DNA of 48,249 nt, the filler included, from Dimargaris cristalligena (Eukaryota): assembly GCA_003614675.1 (NCBI GenBank). It is 2 parts of 2 records of this genome, joined end to end, with 100 filler letters (N's around TTAATTAATTAA, not from the genome) between each part and the next. Parts side by side here need not be neighbours in the genome. Positions count along the whole stretch, not along the records: positions 24,194 to 48,249 come from ML002597.1; 1 more part is not named here. One strand, given 5' to 3'. Made by a program: the position numbers and the translations under genes. Positions 546 to 45,080 of this stretch are shown here, piece by piece; within the stretch, counting starts at the first letter, position 1, and each line of letters begins with the position of its first letter. The notes under the pieces were generated by a model. It saw nothing but the letters and a program-made list of their open reading frames with translations. It was not told the DNA's origin and searched no databases.

Positions 546-2771
546 CTAGTGCTTGATCCGAACTCTTGAAGAACGCCGCATTTTAAGATAGCGCGGGTAG
601 ACATTATTGTACAGCATGTTGAGGACCTCCTTGAGGGCATCATCGAACATGGTGATGCTGTACTTGCCGGCGAGGATGTTTTGGGATACTTCATTAATGC
701 ACGGTCCGGGGACATTGAGGGCCAAGGCCGAGTCAGGGTCAATGTAGCGCTGGAAAAAAGAGTGGAACATGGAGCGTAGATGCTTGGGTACGGGTGGGGC
801 CTGTACAATAGCTACGCGAGGGGTACTGGTACTCGTGATGTTTTTCGGGTTAGTGTGCGATCCCCCCATTTTCTCGTCGCTGGGGGAAGCGTACTGAAGG
901 TTGAGTGGTCGGTAAATGGGGCCGATGGTCTCGTAAATGGTGATGTAGGACGGACTGGGAATCTCGTCACTGTCCCAGGCGGCATCGGACAGGCCGGGTG
1001 AAAACCGAGCGGAAAGGGGAGGTGATAAGATAATCGAGACGTTGCTGGGGCCTGCCCCCGCTGGTGACGCGGTGTACACTTGCAGAATGGGTCGGGACTG
1101 GCCGGCTTGCCAAGTCACCGGAGCAGCGGGCTTCAAGTTCGTCGCCGAAGCCGAAAAGGGCATACCGTGGGGATAGTTCGGTGGCGCTCCCACCTGTAAA
1201 GTCGACTCGGACGGCCGGCCTTCCACTATTCCCCGGCCACCCATTTCCATGGGTGCCGGATAAGTAGGGGAGGTAGGGGCCGAGTGAGTTGGTTTGGTCT
1301 CACTATTGGTAGGCTGACTGGTCTCTTGGGGCACGTAGTACGGGTACACCCGGGCCTTGAGCTGTTGGTAATCCTCTAAAAACAAGGTCAGTTCCGTACA
1401 AAAACAGGCCGCGGCATAATACTTGAATTGTTCGAATTTCTGAGGGCTCTGGAGCAATTGGGTGAAGGCCATCCAGCGGGTTGTGGGTACCGCCGCCTTT
1501 TGGGACCGGTGGTTAGTGATGATTTGGTGCTCCAGGGAATTGGTGGCGTCGGGTCCTACCGCCGTGGCGTAACGGTTGGGCCGCACTGGTGGGGGCGGGG
1601 GCAGCGATGCCCGACCGGCCATTTTCGTTTCCGCCCGCTCTTGGCTCATGAGCGACTGTCGTTTGATGGTCTGCGATAAGCGATAGTTCTCGTTTCTCCG
1701 ACAGAAGGGCATTTTCCGCCGCCCGCCGCAGCCGTTACCGTTGCCATTGCCGCTTACTGAGTCGCCCGCCTCGCTATCACTATCCAGATCCTCCTCCTCC
1801 ACCAAAGCGGTGGGGCCCAGGCGATCGGCATGACGACTAAAGGTTTTCCATAGCGGGGCCACGACACCCACGAAGTGGATGATACTCAGACCCGCGAATA
1901 AGAACACGGTGTTACCCACATAGGCCTTGATAGCGGGCACCAGTTTCCGCGCGCTGAAGAAGAGAATGTACGATACCGCCGCCACGATAATTTCAATGAC
2001 CAGGTCCCGCCGCATCCCGTAGGCGTCGTGCATATCCCATAGCCAGTAGACCATGAGGGGTCCGAACACGAAAATGTGGGCGAAAATCATGCCGTACATC
2101 AGTCCGTACTCCCACGAAATATGGCAGTGGGTGTTGGGTGGGTGGATGCGGAATTGGGGCGAGAAGATTTGGACAAAGACCATGTACACGAAGACCACGA
2201 AGGTGCCGATGAGCGTGGCCCGGATAAGTGTACGTTCCGAAAACCAGTGCCGCTTGCGGTCCCACGAAATTCTTTCCAGCAGCCGGCCGAACCGATACTT
2301 GCGGGTTTCGATGCGACTCTTGAGCTCGTTCTTCTCGAGTACCTGGTCCCACCTCTGCGAGTCCCCGTGAATGGACCCCGAGTCGGGATGTAGGGCGGTT
2401 ACGTGCAGTTTGGCCTGATGGAACTCGGACTGGAAGAGCAGGCGTAGGGTGCGGGCGATGAAGCCAAAGAGCCAGAAAATCACACCAATGTAGAGGCCCC
2501 AGAAATTGAGGAAACAAGGCCAGTGGGGGTTGAAGGCATTGCTTAGACCGGCCACCACACAGAGGGATAGGGCGCCAAGGGTTTCAATGGTCATTAACCG
2601 GGCCGACCGGTACTTATCCTTTTTAGTGCGCTGGATGAAAGCGATGGTGGTGATGATGACAAAGAGAGTGTAAATAACCGTAAGACTGGTGTAGACTAGG
2701 GTTTTAATATGCAGTACGTCGGTACTGTATTGAGTAGGGCTAGTCTTGGCCAGCTCCGTCTGATAAACCAT
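546..2771 (-). CDS. Seven-transmembrane receptor with C-terminal RGS domain (GprK-like 7TM-RGS), 741 aa, intronless
   Basis: Seven hydrophobic segments lie in the first ~310 aa, with WPCF before TM3 and a DAYGMRRDL motif before TM6. RGS motifs are FTQLLQSPQKFEQFKYYAAACFCTELTLFLEDY and FQRYIDPDSALALNV...MFDDALKEVLNMLYNNVYPRYL. Confidence 0.85.
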   Translation of the reverse strand: MVYQTELAKTSPTQYSTDVLHIKTLVYTSLTVIYTLFVIITTIAFIQRTKKDKYRSARLMTIETLGALSLCVVAGLSNAFNPHWPCFLNFWGLYIGVIFWLFGFIARTLRLLFQSEFHQAKLHVTALHPDSGSIHGDSQRWDQVLEKNELKSRIETRKYRFGRLLERISWDRKRHWFSERTLIRATLIGTFVVFVYMVFVQIFSPQFRIHPPNTHCHISWEYGLMYGMIFAHIFVFGPLMVYWLWDMHDAYGMRRDLVIEIIVAAVSYILFFSARKLVPAIKAYVGNTVFLFAGLSIIHFVGVVAPLWKTFSRHADRLGPTALVEEEDLDSDSEAGDSVSGNGNGNGCGGRRKMPFCRRNENYRLSQTIKRQSLMSQERAETKMAGRASLPPPPPVRPNRYATAVGPDATNSLEHQIITNHRSQKAAVPTTRWMAFTQLLQSPQKFEQFKYYAAACFCTELTLFLEDYQQLKARVYPYYVPQETSQPTNSETKPTHSAPTSPTYPAPMEMGGRGIVEGRPSESTLQVGAPPNYPHGMPFSASATNLKPAAPVTWQAGQSRPILQVYTASPAGAGPSNVSIILSPPLSARFSPGLSDAAWDSDEIPSPSYITIYETIGPIYRPLNLQYASPSDEKMGGSHTNPKNITSTSTPRVAIVQAPPVPKHLRSMFHSFFQRYIDPDSALALNVPGPCINEVSQNILAGKYSITMFDDALKEVLNMLYNNVYPRYLKMRRSSRVRIKH

Positions 2772-2799
2772 GGTGGTATTTTCCTTTCTCCAGTCAGGG

Positions 2800-2821
2800 A
2801 TATATATATATATATATATAT
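2800..2821. repeat. (AT)n microsatellite followed by a G run
   Basis: About 11 AT units are directly visible just upstream of the 7TM-RGS start codon. Confidence 0.9.
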
Positions 2822-5422
2822 GGGGGGGGTTACGAGGGATTTAGATAAGCGCCAAGGGTCTCTACCGGCCTCCTGGGTTGGGCAGGAACTCCGGGTAAAT
2901 ATTAAACACAGGCAACGAAACTGGATCACCCGAACTCAGACAACAGTCCAACTTAGATAGCCGAGGACGGATCTCAATTAGACGGGGTCCTAATGAGAGG
3001 TATGCAGTCTTATGCACTGTAAGTTGGTAGAATCCTTTGAAAATAGAGAAGCGGTCGTAACCTTGCCAATAATACCGGCATGCGACTCTGGGCTACGGTA
3101 AACAGCCTAAATAGTATAAAGGTAAAGTGACGCACTAAACCCCCCGGGGCGGGGAACCGATTAGATTATACAATGGATAAAAATCGGGCAGGGGGTATGT
3201 TTTCAGAAAAAACCTAGCCTGGCCTATTCACTGGACCGTAGGATATAGGGATAACAACGGTGTCTTGGGGGCTAGAATGTCCGTGCGTTGGTCAATAGTG
3301 GGAAATAGTAGTAGCGCTGATAAAGGTATGAAAGTGCCCACTAGTATAATCAGATGGCCCAAATTAAAGTAAATGTAACAGAATAGGCAAGGTCTGGTAG
3401 TAGTGGTGGGCCATTTAGATATAACCGAAAATAATACTGAGAAACAGATTAACAAAGAACAGAACAGAAGAGAAGAGATGGTGGGTGGCATCTATTGATA
3501 TTTTGGGGGATTTCGTAAGGGCCACCTCTCCATATACCCGCTGGGGTCGGGGGGTTGGTTTATTGCTACACGCTACTCAGGTAAGGTTACTCTGAGCCAA
3601 CGGTCATTGGAGCCCGCCTGTCTAGCAGCCTAGCGGCACTTCCATCTATAGCACTATCTCTATATCTCAGCCTCAGCTGACGCCAAAACAATATACCGAG
3701 AGGGAAAATTAGCGTATTGGGGATAAGTGGAGGTAGATGTGAATGGTAAACAACCTAGCTTCCGCCTTCCAATAATCAAATATGAGCGGGTATAGTAAAT
3801 CCTATGTATTACATTTTGGCTTAGATATTCAAGTGGGAGCAAGAAAGACGGAACTTTAAACGGGGGAAACGGCCAAGGGTGTACTTGACGAAGCCGTGGT
3901 TTCACCAAGGCGAAATGGTGGCAGTTTTATGGGTACGGGAGTATAGCTCATTGGCCATTCAAACGTTCCTTCGCTGTTGATGAATTCCTCAATTCATTGA
4001 CGTAGTTTCCTACATATCGGAGGGGGAGGCTATTCAAAATAAGGATACGTGTTTGGGGGGTTTGCTGGTGTTAAATGGCTAAAAATCGGCCAAACATCTA
4101 CCCCAGCGTACCCATTCACCCGCCTACAAGCCACCCCATTAAAGCAAGCACGCGACGACAAGGAATGGAAATCAAGCAAAAGGAGCATTATTCACTTGCC
4201 GGAGAAAGGCAGCGGAGGTCACACGGACCTCTATTGCAGGGGTCTAGAGTGCTACCGCTAGCTGGTATAAATGGGACTCGTCCTGCCTAGGTGGGAGAGT
4301 TGTGCCACATTGGCGGAAGCCCATGTACGACCACCACAAGTCTACCTTCCCTGCAGCGACGGTTTATCGACCACCCCCTAGTCCATCTTTCCTATTACTA
4401 AGCCTATGGCCGTACTTCCAGCTGTCACTGTGGCGACTTTCAGTAGGAAAATGCCATGTCTAGGGAGCTTGGGGGTAGCTAAAGTGGCAACCACAGGAAG
4501 ATTCAGTCGAATTCGACAGGCCCGTCAATATGTAGGGCCTTCCGTCGATACGCTTTTCATGCATATCCAAAGAATAGGGAAGCCCCGAACCGCCAGTGTT
4601 GTTGGCCATTAACTCCGCTTACTCCATGGGCTCTGAATCTTGCGAGAAACCCGTGCTTCAGTTGTTGAAAATGCAATATATGATGGGTTTCAAACAATGG
4701 GGCGATTGGTATTCAGGGAATGAGTGTTGGTAAACAGCACCTTGTTCAGATGGCGATGGTCGCAAGTATTAGAATGAACCTCTTATATTTCACTATTCGG
4801 GAAATGTAGTTATCTGAGTTCTAGTCGGCTATAGGTCCAAATATGGTACCCAATGGTCGCCACGTCTCAATCAATGGTGATTAAAGTCAAGTATTCTGGC
4901 TATTCATCGCGCTAAATACTTATAAGATTTGTCGGTGAGTTGTCCTACCCCCGTCCTTCCGAGCCGCTATATTTAGCCCTAAGCCACAATAATTAAAACC
5001 AAGCTCGCAATGCTTCGAATCCCGTCTCCATATACTGGCACGTTGACCCTAAAGTACAGTTAAATTAGGAATTTAATCTTTACTAATAGCCATTCCGTAA
5101 CTGCGCCAACACCCACGCGTTCCAGAGGTGAAACAGTCAGGAGGCCCCGGCGACTCTACCCACCCTCCAGTGCCAGTCTCTGATAGACTCCGTCATTTTT
5201 TTTTCGGAGTTCTGAATGGACGCGTTTGATCCTAGAGCGAATGCCCCTGTGTCAATTGCGATTTTAGTCCATTCCTGCACATTGCTCAATTACCCATTTC
5301 AACTGATTGCTTACCTTCCTGTATCCTTATTGTTTTACCCCCCCGCCCAGATTCTACCATTGAGCTATTTATTCACCTCCATTACTTCACACCCCTCCCG
5401 TAGTTCACTACATATTTGAACC

Positions 5423-20172: not shown

Positions 20173-23100
20173 TTAATCATCCTCCGACCAACTCGGCCCG
20201 GAGATATGGGTCATGATGGCACAAATATCCGGTCCTAAGGCACGGTACTCCGCCACCAACCCGGCCAGTATAGGCTGGAAAGGCCGTAAGAGCGACCGCA
20301 TTTTTGGGCTCAGCGCCATGCATTTGGTAAACTGTAGGAGTTTCAAAAAGAGCTGCCGGCGGTAATTAATCCGAATGTCCGCTGGTTCGGCGGGGACATT
20401 GCCCCAAATGAGGGAATCCCGATCCTTATCCCCCCGGGACGAAGTAGCGGTAGTCGTCGTCGTCTTGGTGGTAGTGGCGGGGTTGGTGGCGGGGGCAGGG
20501 ACAGGGGCGGAGCTGGCCAGAGCAGCAGGCACGTGGGGTTTACCCGAAGGGTAAAAGGTCGGTTTGAAGGTGGGAATATGCGTCTTGAAGTGCATGGTGG
20601 TTTGCAAGTGGTAAATCCGGGGTCGTAGGCCCTTGCGGATGCCGAATTCAAAAGGGCAGGTACCCCATTGGCATTTCCATTCCATCCCGGATTTGGGGGC
20701 CGGGCTGGTGCCAGCTGTGCCAGTTGAGTCGGCGGAGGAAACGGCTGCTTCGATTTCCATTTCGGTGAGGGCGTGGGTCTGGATTAAATGGTGGATAAAT
20801 GTTTTCTGGGCCGCCTGGAACTCCGTCGGAGCGTTGGAATCCGTGGTTTGTTGATGGTCCACGGCAAGCGTAGTGGACAACTTGGTATGGGTGTCTTCCC
20901 CCCAGGCAGAAGTCGATCGCTGGGATGCGGTAGAGGCGTTCGATTTAGCGCTTATGAGGGGAGCGGTGAATGTTAAGCGGTAATTGCAATCCTTCCACTG
21001 ACAGCAAAAGGTGTATGAATCCCGAGGTAGTTGGCTCTCCTCGGGGGTGGGTTTGGGCATGTCAGCCGTTCTTTCACCACCCCCCGCTGATGAAGCAGCT
21101 GTACCATTATTGCCGGTGGCACTGTCGTTAGGTTTGGGAATAACCGTAGTATAGGCCCCCAATTTCTTGCGCAAGTGAAGACAAAGCAGCTGGGCCGTCT
21201 TGGGGTGGTTGATGGCATGGCTCATCGGGAAAGCCGCTTTAACGGTGGCAAGTACGTCATTCACATTAAGGGGCCCGTCGCCCATAGTGACTGAGTCCGC
21301 CTGGGCCTGACGGGTGGCCTCAAAGGCCCGCGCATAAGCATCATAGACTTCCGGAAAGGATACGAAACTCGGGATCACGGGTTTATCAGGCCCAGCGGGG
21401 TTCGACATGGGGGGCGAGAATTCCAGATTGGTGTTTAGCCACTGGGTTACTGAATCTTGGCGGGGCTTGGGGACGTTGGCAGTAGAGGTGGGGTCTGTTG
21501 ATGGCGGAAGAGGCTGGGGGCCTGCAGCGGACGGCAGAGCGGCCAGGGTTTGGGGGGCCTGCTCAACCATCCGGTGGATCACAATAGAGATCAGGTCGGT
21601 CGGGGAAAAGGGGCAATCCGTCACGGCCAAACGCCCTTTACTGGCGTCGGTCAATAGCGCTTCGAATTCGTGTTCCTTAATCTCGGTCAACTTGAGTAGA
21701 ATATCGATGGTCACCATGAGCACCTCCATATCGGGCGCCAGCAGGAGATGTGATATACGATTGAGAACCGTGGGCTCGACAATTTGGTCCACATTGGGGT
21801 GCTCCCGCAGCAACAGGAAGGCCAGTGATTTGAGTGCGTTCAGCAGGGTGGCCCGGTCGGGGCTGAAGAGGTTGAGGCGGAGGACCGGGATCAGTGACGC
21901 GGGGATGACCTGGACAGGGGCCACCAGGCAGACTGACTCGAGAATATCCTGCAGGTGACGGTACAGCTCAGTGTAGTAGAAATGGACGTCGGATGCAATG
22001 ACTCGCTCCCACTGGGCGTCTAGCTGTTCCACAGAGGTGCGCAGTTCCATCAGAGCCGTGGGCCCCAGGCTTAACTCGGAAAGGGCGGTCGTTTGGGCTG
22101 CCAAACGCCGGTCCGGTATACTCTGGTGGCAGAGATGTCCCCGTAAATACCAGCCGATAAAGTTAAGAAGGGTGGAGTCTGACGTGACCAACTGGGCTGT
22201 GATGGATTCCAGCTGCGACAGATTATGGACAATGGTGACGATCTGCAGAATTCGCTCCAGCTGGGTATTTTCGTACCATGTAAATATATGGGGGGAAACT
22301 GATTTAGACGACGATGGAGACGATGTTCGGACTTGGGCTTGGATAGCGGAGGCTGAGGAGTCTAGTAAATGAATTACAGCTAATTTGAGATGCATCATAA
22401 TGATCGGAATCAAATCCGGAATACAACGGATATCGAATTCATCGGGGCAGAGCTTGGAGACCCGAAGCAGGCGGTTGAAGGCCCAGTCAACTTCATTAGG
22501 GAGATTGGATAGGAGGGCCAGCCGGATTCGGTTTTGGAAAACGCCGCCTAAATATTCGTCCGCGTCGTTTTGGAGGGGGTTACGCGGTACGGTGACGAGG
22601 GTGGTGTCCCGGTAGGTACGGCGGGGTCGTTTGGAGGAAAGGACTGGAGTTGGTTCGGAATCAAACGGATTGTCCGATTCTGATGATGCATCGGAGTGGT
22701 TAGACGATGGTGACAAGGCCGACTGACCCGGGGCAGTGAACGGATTCTCCTTATCGGGTGGCGAAGAGGTCGTATCTATGATCGGGGGCTTTTCCGCGTC
22801 TAGTTGGAAGGTATTGTTGCGGAGTATCCGCCTAAAGGTCTCGATTAAACGACTAGACGGTTGGGTTGGGGGATGGCTGAATAGCTGCTTGAGCTGATGG
22901 ATACGTTTGGGATCGGCCTTATCATCTTGGACGAGATTCCAGTATTCTTGATTGAGGTGAATGGCAAAGGGGTGGATAGATTGAAAATAGATACCCTTGA
23001 GTAGCACTAGGTTCTTGATTGACTGCGGTAAAGAGAGGGCCTGGGCCAATATACCCCAGCCACCAGTTGTGGTCAGCTAGTATCGGTCATATCGAAGGTT

Positions 23101-40047: not shown

Positions 40048-40774
40048 ACCACCGTTTTAGCTGTCGTATACAACCTCCTCCCCAATCCCGTGAGCTTCTT
40101 TGGCACATTTGCAATAATATATATCATTGGTTTCAACAAACTAGAACTAATGGATCGGGTGGCCTTAATCCTACCCATCCCACTCAATACCTCCTATTAC
40201 CTACCTATATTGGCTCTTCCTGTAATTTAAGAGTTAACACCTTTTGTCCAATTCTGTATAATAATTTAATGCAATATGTTTGCTCAGTGAATTATCACAC
40301 CACCTGATTATATTTTTGGTAAAGTGACATGCGTTTGCATGAACTACAATATAGAGTAGGGGCTGGCGAAAACTTATTGCACAGAGGTTAGCTAACGTTA
40401 GAAGTTATTGCAATGGTTATGCAAGTGTTGGTGTTTGAATGCACAGCAGGCTGTCATTTCAATCACGTGAGTGGTATACACTGTCTCGCTCTCATATTTC
40501 CAAGGGCCAACTACGAGGGTTTGAACGGAAATAAGCGAGTGTTTCTTGGCTAGCCTTGTTGCGCTCCGTTCCAGCCAAAGCTGCCTTCCAAGCAACAGCA
40601 CTATTTAGCCTGAGGTTAAGCATAAACAAAGGACACAATTCCCCAGTCAACTTCCCGTTTTTCGGTTCCATATACGCCATTGCAACTTATTTCTAGGTAC
40701 ACTGTACATTGTCACCGAATGCTATATTTCGACTCTAACACCATTGGCCAATAACTTACCGACATTCCCTGACC

Positions 40775-42317
40775 ATGCCCTCCGATGGACAACCGCTAAA
40801 CTCTGTCTCCCATTTACAGTGGTCCGAAGCCCTGGAATGGCTATCGACGGCCCTTGCCTGTGCCTCCACTAGCTCCGGGGCCGGTTCCTTAGCTACTGAC
40901 CCCACCCGGTTAATAACTCCCCAAGTGGAAAAGACCCCCGAGACCTTGGCTTTATTGCAGTACCTCCGAAGACAGGTCGAACAGCGTGAGCGTACCGGTC
41001 CGGTGGTGGGACGGGCCCAGGACCGACTCCGAGCTGAATATCAGGGTACCTATGAACTTTATAGCCGGACTCTCCAGCGGTTAGGCGTGCCTTGGGAATC
41101 ACTTCCGGACTCGCTTCAATTGACACTAGAAGCCCTGGCGGATATCGCCGGGATCCTCCAACTCCGGGACTGTCACGCCAGCAGGTAGGTCGTATTATTA
41201 ATACATTGATGTTAGTCCTCAACCACTATCCCTGGATAGGCTGGGTCATAACGATCAATGGCCATGTCTATTGCTATATTGTCTTTTTTATATATTTCAA
41301 TATGTGCCAATAATAAGGTATGTCATTCACGCCTTCAGTGAGCATGGACTAGCGCTAACCTCCGAGACAGTTCGCCACTACTCGTGTATATTTCTATGAC
41401 ATGAAACTACTAGCTACCAGGGGGCTTTATTTGACTTGGCAAATCAGCAGCGACAGACTCAGCTAGAACTCAACCGTATAGAACGACAGCAACGCCGAGT
41501 CACTCACCATAAACGAGCTGCGCGCCAGCAACTGTCAGTTATCCGAAGGTAATGCACGGTATACCCATTCAGAGACATTATCGGACGGTACTCTAGCGGA
41601 CGTTTACCCGATGACTAACGAAACTGGGTTATATTAATGTATTTTTTTATGTATAACCAATCGGGCGTATTCAATATTTGCATCTATTGCTTGGTTTCCA
41701 CGCTACGACTTGGATTATTCGCGATAAACACGGCAAAATCAACAGTACCATCCGCGATAGTAGCGCAGTCAAACCCGCTGAAGAACAAAAGATGAGGGAA
41801 TGGCGGCATAACGCTCAGCTTCTAGCCCAAAAGGGCGAGGAATACCGGGATCGGGCCGATCATCTGATTAACCAGTACAACTCCTTGGGGGTTGAGACTA
41901 AACGGTTGGATTATGCTACGCTCAAAACTACCGATCGCCACGTCGATGAACTCTCGAAGTCTCTGGCCCAAAAGTCGTCCAAACTAGAAAGCTACATGGC
42001 CCTGCCACCGGTACGTAATAATACCAATGCATTTGAGGGCATTGTCTTGGGCCTCTAATATCATTTTTTTGAAAGACCGATGCGATTCTTTCCGGCTGGG
42101 CTCTGCGCTTATATTAACCACGGCAAGGAACCATTACTGACCAATTGCCAACCACTACAACCCACAATTGACACTGTAAACCCCTTTATCGTATATTCGG
42201 GATTGCTAGGATTTGACCTTGGCCACCATCGAGCTTACCGAAGCGAACATGGCCCTCAAGTCGCTCCAGGAGGACAGGGAAGAGCTACTTTGTAAGATTG
42301 CGGAGCAAATGCAATAA
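40775..42317 (+). CDS. HAUS1: HAUS/augmin complex subunit 1-like, ~305 aa
   Basis: Exons 40775-41184, 41414-41548, 41746-42010 and 42210-42317. The protein is coiled-coil with WL...PQVEKTPETL, LEALADIAGILQLRD and LESYMALPP|DLTLATIELTEA. Confidence 0.8.
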
Positions 42318-43521
42318 GGGCCTCTCTTTCACGCCAAGCCCATTTGTATATCATTACTCGGATTTCTGGGATGCCTTATTATTAATGAAATTACCTTTTG
42401 TCATTCATGATAAAGGATATGTATGACACGCTCTTGGTTGACTAGAAACCTACGGTATTTTGCCAATCCCAACGGATATGGTATTGTAGGTATACTTTCA
42501 AATAGCCGAGATAGATTGTAGTATTTAATAATAATAATAGTAATATGTATAAAATTGTAGCGGTCCTGAATACCCCAAGCAGGCCCATGTCTCCACCATC
42601 AATTCCACACTGGGGTAAATAACAAGGCGAGCATACCGTTATAGAAATGCTTTTAGTGGAAATTAGCGTATAAGGCATTACCTCCTTAATGGGAATGGAA
42701 ACCTTCCCGCCCCGTTGAAAGACTCTCTGGCATAAGTTGAACAGTGATATTAGTACAACTACGTAGTTACCGACAACCCGAAGTTAGCGGATTCTGTACT
42801 TTACTTATAGGGAGGGGGGGGCATTGGATAGAGGGAAGCCCCCACTTCCCTACTTCCATATTACACCAATCATTGGTGTACCACATTCTCTCCACATTAT
42901 AGAGCGGGTGGGCCCATGTAACCCATCTGTCTGTTCCCCACATACTAGTTTGCCTATGGCCCCACCGCTCGTTTTGTTTAAGGCAGTGGGGTCACTAATA
43001 TGTAAGACACGGATGCTTTTGATCGGCCATTAGCAAGAGTAGTTCCTACTTTGGCCCCATTCGCCCAGGCCTCCGTTGTCTCGCGCTTTGATAAGTCCCC
43101 CCGTCCCTGTCTTTCAATAATCTTCCGGCAGGGCTAAAGAGTAAAGCCAACATCCCCTCCCCATTCATAGCATACTAGCCTATGTGTAATACTTTTACTG
43201 AACCTGTAATATCAGAATAGTAATTCCAGAGGATATTCAGCTGTGCTTGATATAAATGACAGTGCGGTCGTATAGTGGTTATGCACATATATTTATTTAA
43301 TGGATTCTAGTGTATTCCATCCTTCTATGACTATTTAGTATAAAGCTGGATGACCAAACCCTCCAAACATACCACTTTCCCTCTCCATTTCTTTCTTCCC
43401 GATAGCATAACAGGTTCACTTCATTTCTATATGTTGTATGCCCCCTTCTATTCTCTGTTATGTAGACATTTCTATGTTAGCCTGTGATATTCTGAACGTT
43501 ATTTTATATCACCAATTCCCG

Positions 43522-45080
43522 ATGCGGTGGCCTTTACTTCACTTGATAATCTCAGTTTGGGCCCTACTCGCCATAGTTTTAGGCAACGAAACTTCAGTCA
43601 TTTTTGACAGTCATGACAGGTCAGCCACCATTCCAAACCCCAGGACTAATTCCAAAAGGACTACCTTTCCAAGTGAAATTATCGCTCAAGTATTCAATTT
43701 CGCGGATAAGGCAACGCTTCTTGGGTTAATTCTCGAAGAATCTACATTTGAGCAATACGCACGAACGGCGTTAGTCAATCAGGTACGTTGTTCGCCTATA
43801 TACCGGCCATTTAAACCGACAATTGGTTTAAGGTTATCCCAATATTCTTAATATATCGGCTATTCGTGATTCCTCCAAAAGCCACCCCTAATTGCACTTC
43901 CTTCTAAAATCCAATGGTATTCCCTGCTAATAATTTATCTATAATCCTAACTAAAAAGTTGGTATCGGAATGGGAGGCAACCACCGCCCAGTCCGAGCTA
44001 ATTCTATCGAACCAGGCTGATTGGAACCGGTTTGCCGTCGCCCTTAACCTCTTGACTCCACTAGAAACCTGGGACGTTTATCTTTCCAAAATCGCCACCC
44101 TTCTGGTGGGTCAATTGTCCTACAGCGACATTTACCGACTTCAGACATTCGGTACCGCAAGTATAACGCAGTTCATTCGCGCCCAGGCCTATCTTCGGTT
44201 TTGTCAAGTCAACCTGGCCAACCCCTATATGACCCAAAACCAACGCACCTCTATAGACCTGGCCCAACTGGCCCCCGTCGATGTATACCGCGAATTTCCC
44301 CTGGTGGCCCGAGCCTCGGCGGACACCCTGTTGGGATTATTTCGGCTGCTAACGGCGGTCAAAAAACCCCTGGGAGTCAAGGATCCGGTCATGACCGATA
44401 CCCTCCAGCACCTCGACTTACAGCCCATCTCCATTTACAGTGGCGTTTCCCACTTTTTACCCGATATCATACAACGTACCATTACAGCGGGCTTATGGTG
44501 GCTTCAGCGAACCGGGCAAACCGCCGAATTCGATCGTTTTTTCAACCAAGCGAAGGGGTATTTGTTCGGCGAGGTCGATCGCCATTCGGTTTCCGGCGGA
44601 CACTACTGGCCACGCTTAGCCATTTGGTTGGTGGACCACTTCGAGCGCTACGTGCAGTTCGGTATGGTTATGGCCACTTTCGATCAGAATCCAGCAGGCC
44701 GCATCGGTGGACTGGAGAAGCATTTAGTTGACCTGGAACCGATGCTGCCCTGGGCAGGTTCGGGATTACAGGAGCGCCGAACTCAGTTCATTGCGGCACT
44801 CAGCGAACTTAAATTAACCCGCCCTTTGGCGTATTTCCGTACCATCTGGCCCGGGATTAATTACGACCAGGGCAACTATGTGTTTAACTATCCATTACCT
44901 GGCAACTACCTACGACTGGATAACGAGGGGCATCTACATGTCGCGGTCCCGTCAGCCCGTCTTTTGGACCCGTCTTTACTCCCAAACGCTACTAGCTCAA
45001 ACGCCTTAATTGCCGAATGGAACCTAAAGGACTATCCTTTTGTGAAGCACATGCACGAAATGGCCACCGCACAAAGCTAG
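43522..45080 (+). CDS. Predicted secreted orphan protein with an N-terminal F-box-like motif, ~460 aa
   Basis: Exons 43522-43782 and 43959-45080 (GTACGT donor, CTAAC branch, AAG acceptor, phase 0). The signal-peptide-like start is MRWPLLHLIISVWALLAIVLG, followed by FPSEIIAQVFNFADKATLLGL. The rest is not recognised. Confidence 0.75.

Follow-up and report, generated by a model that had tools for sequence, protein, structure and literature searches.

Does the gene at 43522-45080 (+) of Dimargaris cristalligena encode a secreted F-box protein that is delivered into another fungus and hijacks its ubiquitin ligases, as an earlier note on this DNA proposed? The gene lies in a 48,249-nucleotide stretch of DNA, here called the window, which consists of two contigs; because positions 1-24093 (G000:C389) and the query gene (C390) sit on different contigs, gene order across the join is uninformative. 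Two stop-free exons (43522-43782 and 43959-45080) make up the gene, and its features are as follows.

43339..43344, plus strand: TATA-like box of putative function, 183 nt upstream of the ATG
43522..43782, plus strand: exon 1, 87 aa holding signal peptide, linker and F-box-like segment, in a layout that matches deposited paralogs
43522..43584, plus strand: predicted cleavable signal peptide, residues 1-21, by a hydropathy heuristic
43585..43665, plus strand: linker of 27 aa, unconserved, with KR at residues 45-46 (43654-43659)
43666..43782, plus strand: divergent F-box-like segment, residues 49-87, with three predicted helices and without V-C/S-x-x-W in the third
43783..43958, plus strand: intron, 176 nt, phase 0, GT-AG, at a position common to the family
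43959..45080, plus strand: exon 2, 373 codons plus stop, a predominantly helical domain that includes a small beta sheet

Exon 1 runs from the ATG at 43522 through 87 codons to a GTACGT donor at 43783, and the intron holds a CTAAC branch-like site (43947-43951) ahead of its AG acceptor (43957-43958). The exon 1 layout recurs in deposited full-length paralog models, for example P0006, P0007, P0010 and P0188; the splice point of the query gene is shared by P0006, P0007, P0010, P0011 and P0188, and paralog exon 2 starts in register with that of the query. It is on this comparison with paralogs and models that the 43783-43958 splice rests. The gene stands between HAUS1, upstream, and a MaoC-like dehydratase gene that follows on the opposite strand, so that the description of the gene as an orphan between housekeeping genes was right about its setting and wrong about its being an orphan, exon 2 having 36 matching places in its own genome. 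Both deposited models of the query gene are probably wrong. P0003 starts inside the intron and lacks exon 1, and P0185 joins HAUS1 (40739-42317, +) to exon 2 through the donor and acceptor given above; because HAUS1 has its stop near 42317 and the paralogs carry first exons of their own, we judged this fusion to be a prediction artefact. The signal-peptide exon is also absent from several deposited paralog models. That the family was overlooked is due in part to the missing first exon in both models of the query gene.

The strong signal-peptide-like start seen in the earlier note agrees with the hydropathy heuristic. Residues 1-21 carry Arg at position 2 ahead of a hydrophobic core of 16 residues, with heuristic flanking charges of +2 on the N-side and -2 on the C-side. 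By a hydropathy rule, 50/65 family loci are preceded by an exon that opens with an ATG and a signal-peptide-like stretch and closes on a phase-0 donor; the opposite strand gave 3 and shuffles 3.2. K, R or H lies near the start in 46 of the 50. In a set of 52 family first exons, left after 6 of 58 picks had been rejected by eye for being wrong or incomplete, the core has a median length of 15 residues, and C-side minus N-side charge is zero or below in 48, a pattern that favors a cleaved peptide and disfavors a signal anchor. The 63 family domains yielded no ER-retention tail and a possible membrane segment in four; no uptake motif common to the 52 linkers was found. N-glycosylation sequons occur in the query directly after the signal peptide and in exon 2 (one each). 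Just upstream of family starts ATGs are depleted, and A stands at -3 in 42/51 genes. The query departs from this: its start has a weak context with C at -3, and four further ATGs precede it, at -91, -84, -62 and -48, of which two are in frame. Its N-terminus is very similar to that of paralog L007. TATAAA was found in 28/51 family upstream regions (6.6 expected), with a peak 150-225 nt upstream.

The linker of about 27 aa with its KR dibasic site was found as described. Compared with six paralogs, its similarity is at shuffle level (0/6 conserved), and a KR or RR pair before the F-box is present in 4 of the 26 paralogs that have both a signal peptide and an F-box, and in 2/12 of the close clade. 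Kex2 processing, which the earlier note had included in its proposal, was dropped as a family mechanism since the dibasic pair is so rare and the linker unconserved, although Kex2 cleavage of the query copy itself is possible.

For the segment after the KR, Pfam (PF00646 / PF12937) returned 0 families with query exon 1 or the 45-aa segment. An independent HMM whose only training sequences were 13 ordinary cytosolic F-boxes from this genome gave query exon 1 5.2 bits (residues 48-67), a score reached by 1/300 shuffles. Of the close paralogs that had been classed by eye, 9/12 F-box-like ones scored at 1/300 shuffles or better, as did 0/13 of those classed as without an F-box. When the query-clade profile was aligned to the cytosolic F-box profile in hhalign, the segments being chosen partly by eye, the probability was 93.8% (E 1.7e-7). 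The query keeps P-x-E and the hydrophobic spacing of F-box helices 1-2. Its third helix is the poor match that had been flagged, with E-E-S-T-F aligned to the canonical V-C/S-x-x-W and Glu in place of the opening Val. This alteration is compatible with function, because two-helix poxviral F-boxes suffice for Skp1/Cul1 binding according to the available text of PMC9414399. We use the term F-box-like because the segment has neither a Pfam-level score nor the helix-3 motif.

The segment was modeled as three helices (pLDDT 88), a model that may be pulled to the F-box fold because the folded alignment included canonical-looking paralogs. In a structure search of 48,161 chains, F-boxes took 9 of the top 10 places (Z 4.2-5.9, rmsd 2.1-3.1 Å over 40-44 of 45 residues), the first place going to an unrelated non-F-box chain (Z 6.0, rmsd 6.3) and every Z lying under 8. 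Foldseek of the same model gave nothing at E <= 0.001 and ranked the CNOT3 NOT-box first. Co-folds of the 45-residue segment with a fungal Skp1, run without alignments and without folded controls, scored 0.01 and 0.02, which counts neither for nor against binding.

Judged by Pfam, several paralogs are F-box proteins. The deposited paralog P0194 passes the F-box-like cut-off (25.6 vs 24.3 bits), family-linked loci L042, L046 and L047 exceed theirs with 34.2, 29.1 and 27.9, and 20/38 family segments match a Pfam F-box at E <= 0.1. In 12 of the best 30 PF12937 loci the F-box sits on a short first exon behind a signal-peptide-like start, and four of these 12 are above the curated cut-off; 18/48 PF12937 matches lie directly upstream of the family domain. 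An automatic pass over 71 loci, 13 of which yielded no first-exon candidate, scored 51 as signal-peptide-like, 29 as F-box-positive and 26 as both, so that the combination seen in the query is found in paralogs as well. Against the PDB, 23/27 matches of a 38-member family-only profile were F-box proteins, compared with 4/14, all weak, for a 13-member profile of the query clade. Conservation of the motif among paralogs was also borne out: the segment is conserved against 7/7 (0/300 shuffles each), and against two distant paralogs it is conserved at least as well as the domain (39% vs 23% and 38% vs 28%). UniRef titles some relatives 'F-box domain-containing', with no mention of secretion in those titles. 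At L048, L053, L054 and L057, first exons with signal peptide and F-box are followed by ORFs that miss the family profile at E < 0.001; these may be distant members, broken copies or carriers of other partner domains.

Exon 2 is, as had been noted, a separate phase-0 exon with a domain of no recognized family, neither query exon giving a Pfam match. Its model consists of helices and three short strands (pLDDT 87, pTM 0.90), without a membrane segment or ER-retention tail and with one Cys. Foldseek against PDB and viral sets found none at E <= 0.001, the sequence had no match in the PDB, and Atlas matches reached only 0.88 or less. In the structure search no Z was 8 or above and residues 308-373 were barely covered; the best match was Est1, with Z 7.4 and rmsd 5.3 across 199 residues, which is within the range seen for generic helical repeat proteins. 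As modeled, the domain resembles no clear known fold. Across the family its identity is 19-34%, some subfamilies have conserved cysteines, and in 42 diverse members near-invariance is confined to one Pro and one Gly, a pattern that would suit a binding scaffold more than an enzyme. The suggestion of variable C-termini among paralogs is accurate as to divergence; mostly, these C-termini belong to a single domain family.

Two known repeat types were considered for this domain. For leucine-rich repeats, the region after the query F-box gave no Pfam match and was modeled as helical with three short strands. For ankyrin repeats there was an Atlas lead on a Tieghemiomyces relative (0.82), and four look-alike units were picked out by eye (33-residue helix-turn-helix repeats with the TPLH-A-G pattern being sought). 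Profile tests were not significant (hhalign 0.3-2%) and the scores of the four units were equaled by 145-450 of 2000 column shuffles, and an ankyrin origin was left as an unproven lead. Weak PRANC matches were seen on paralogs L025, L032 and P0027 (E 0.07-0.23).

Four seeds gave 36, 44, 27 and 44 own-genome matches, those beyond exon 2 bringing in additional subfamilies, and one further seed matched only itself. Merging the matches at E <= 0.001 and adding eight loci (six profile-linked, two weaker matches) brings the family to at least 124 distinct loci, spread over 117 contigs, which is a minimum for this search; 37 loci of one seed search are tied to the family only through seed P0049, itself a profile match, and some near-identical locus pairs could be alleles, because the species may be non-haploid. 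An iterated profile unites 71/89 ORFs of at least 200 aa (84 genome pieces) and was joined by 0 reversed decoys. The guess at an expanded, apparently undescribed family is supported. Searching 1.84 billion representatives with a profile of 23 close paralogs found 48 proteins at E <= 0.001. Of the 29 that were looked up, 26 fall in D. cristalligena clusters and 3 are from Tieghemiomyces parasiticus, and the remaining 19 are 90-100% matches to own-genome loci; by sequence, all 48 trace to these two species, both haustorial parasites of fungi, in line with the (myco)parasitic source that had been suggested. Other Dimargaris species and Dispira yielded no relatives at E <= 0.001 with this profile, built from the query clade alone, and word-index searches, an insensitive method, gave 2 matches each. 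Dimargaritales attack Mucoromycota and Ascomycota by means of an appressorium and a biotrophic haustorium, as described in the available part of PMC9866270. Most likely the family is restricted to Dimargaritales, with signal peptide, F-box and helical domain as its ancestral layout.

In-frame stops interrupt 4/36 exon 2 matches and 16/44 matches of a second seed, some of them perhaps at intron edges, which fits the expectation of birth-and-death evolution. The reading frame is split or holds stops in members L014, L020, L028, L031, L032, L071, L073 and L085, and the L014 domain also contains a repeated stretch.

A FastTree covering 71 domains, 68 from this genome and 3 from Tieghemiomyces, with long branches and a midpoint root, was used to follow the F-box through the family. 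With F-box labels assigned partly by eye and 10 entries unlabeled, all 14 members without an F-box fall in the query's clade of 29, two of the query's three nearest relatives are among those without it, and every labeled member outside the clade has a clear or weak F-box. Within the clade, supported branches force at least five changes in F-box presence. The simplest reading is that the F-box is ancestral and was then altered and repeatedly lost in the query clade. Since 14 members of the clade are without the F-box, the helical domain can persist without it, and the losses weaken the adaptor reading more for the query copy than for the family.

We give slightly better than an even chance to the query gene being a host-delivered SCF-adaptor mimic of a secreted family. 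Its signal peptide would take the protein into the secretory pathway and be removed; the lifestyle of the parasite suggests that release would follow at the haustorium, with passage into the host-fungus cytosol. There, going by homology and predicted fold, the F-box would dock on host Skp1-Cul1, and the fast-diverging helical domain, by analogy with SSGP-71 and RipG, would capture a host protein for ubiquitination and degradation, each paralog perhaps having a target of its own. The substrate-binding role of exon 2 is inferred from that analogy only. Adaptor function is better argued for the paralogs with canonical F-boxes, being fairly probable for the family and falling somewhat short of even for the query copy.

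Alternatively, the query copy could be an effector that derives from F-box proteins and no longer depends on the F-box, the segment in its clade being a structural cap or in decay and the helical domain acting on a host target by binding alone. This would account for the 14 F-box-less clade members, the repeated losses, the remodeled third helix and the query's lack of a Pfam match, and there are parallels: one SSGP-71 effector is also without an F-box (PMC4617103, available text), and some poxviral ANK/F-box activities need none, as reported in the accessible part of PMC9414399. A segment in decay would not be expected to be at least as conserved as the domain against the two distant paralogs, however, nor to retain P-x-E and the hydrophobic pattern of helices 1-2, and we regard this explanation as unlikely, though to be taken seriously. 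If the protein instead stayed outside the host cell, in the wall or haustorial matrix, with the F-box a relic of a cytosolic ancestor kept for folding, then the lack of an uptake motif in 52 linkers, the glycosylation sequons and the conserved cysteines of some subfamilies would be explained. Over-cut-off F-boxes behind the signal peptide of several paralogs are hard to understand without a Skp1 partner, and query exon 2 has a single Cys, making an extracellular role improbable.

The F-box evidence would serve equally well for a Skp1 sponge, which binds host Skp1 without a substrate and blocks SCF ligases by competition, and the want of a recognized substrate-binding fold in exon 2 agrees with it. 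A sponge has no need of so large and well-folded a domain in more than 100 paralogs diverged to 19-34% identity, nor of members without an F-box, and this we consider quite improbable. The query copy might also be barely made or not secreted, owing to an upstream ATG, a membrane anchor or another upstream exon; with the hydrophobic stretch as an anchor, the F-box would be left in the parasite's own cytosol. The four upstream ATGs, the weak context of the start and the omission of exon 1 from P0003 and P0185 speak for this. We hold it to be very improbable, given the similar N-terminus of L007, the two stop-free exons, the family-wide depletion of upstream ATGs and A at -3 that mark real starts, the charges that fit a cleaved peptide in 48/52 first exons, and the splice shared with full-length deposited paralog models.

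Established cases of F-box mimicry come from bacteria, viruses and one insect. The Hessian fly SSGP-71 effector family was reportedly described by Zhao et al. in 2015. SSGP-71 proteins combine an F-box with LRRs and interact with wheat Skp proteins, and one member has no F-box, as set out in the available texts of PMC4617103 and PMC7330099. Like SSGP-71, the Dimargaris family is a large one in a eukaryotic biotroph, is encoded by genes with predicted signal peptides, has an N-terminal F-box followed by a variable C-terminal domain, and includes members without the F-box. Unlike SSGP-71, with its LRRs and demonstrated Skp interaction between insect and wheat, it has an unfamiliar helical fold and a putative Skp1 interaction and belongs to a parasite whose hosts, too, are fungi. 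No sequence link joins the two, all 48 profile matches being from Dimargaritales. Ralstonia RipG/GALA proteins are F-box-LRR effectors (PMC4617103, in the part available), and like these and Legionella AnkB, whose F-box was the second-best PDB sequence match of the family profile (E 4.9e-4), the Dimargaris proteins have an N-terminal F-box and would be pathogen proteins mimicking host SCF adaptors. The bacterial proteins differ in their type III or IV delivery in place of the ER, their LRR or ankyrin partners and their small families. Judged on its sequence, which has no LRR and a link limited to the F-box, the query gene is not a member of SSGP-71, RipG or AnkB. Poxviral ANK/F-box (PRANC) proteins share a non-canonical F-box, of two helices there and with an altered third helix here (PMC9414399, as available), but are viral, are made inside the host cell and have a C-terminal F-box with ankyrin repeats. 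Ordinary fungal cytosolic F-box proteins (F-box/WD40, F-box/LRR) have homologous helices 1-2 and differ in their canonical third helix and known partner domains. Among this genome's long-ORF F-box genes, none has a signal peptide at a plausible start, with one doubtful case at L035.

A literature search for secreted F-box effectors in Dimargaris, Zoopagomycota and mycoparasites, with most subscription papers outside its coverage, found no such fungal family. The word 'F-box' is absent from the main text of two Dimargaritales genome papers (PMC9866270 and PMC6784888), as available, and from one supplement of the former, and the accessible portions of PMC8146833 and PMC13618815 describe no such family. 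A 2021 fungal comparative study called the role of the F-box domain in eukaryotic pathogenicity unclear (PMC8146833, in the portion available). That more than 100 ER-secreted F-box effectors with an undescribed helical fold would enter the host via the haustorium and redirect SCF to many targets seems to us evenly balanced between true and false. To our knowledge, the molecular control of a living fungal host by haustorial mycoparasites is almost unstudied. If true, the proposal would add a family of F-box effectors from fungi and offer a molecular way into the biotrophic parasitism of one fungus on another. The loci, at least 124, are named and testable candidates that grade naturally from canonical through remodeled to absent F-boxes, and their C-terminal domain is a confidently modeled fold without a clear match.

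The parasite's own Skp1 (L064, G000:C77; P0065-P0067) is only 66-68% identical to the Skp1 of Dispira and D. xerosporica, and its C-terminal half differs at several positions that are otherwise at least 90% conserved in a fungal alignment. One may speculate that this reflects either general fast evolution or self/host discrimination. A second Skp1-like gene (L065:718-1350, G000:C314) has a long low-complexity insertion between both Skp1 parts. Elsewhere in the window, a 967-aa open frame at 20173-23076 (-) has no significant Pfam match, and a 764-aa frame at 546-2840 (-) combines an RGS domain above the cut-off with a weak 7tm_3 match, a receptor-RGS fusion which we take to resemble fungal GprK-type proteins.
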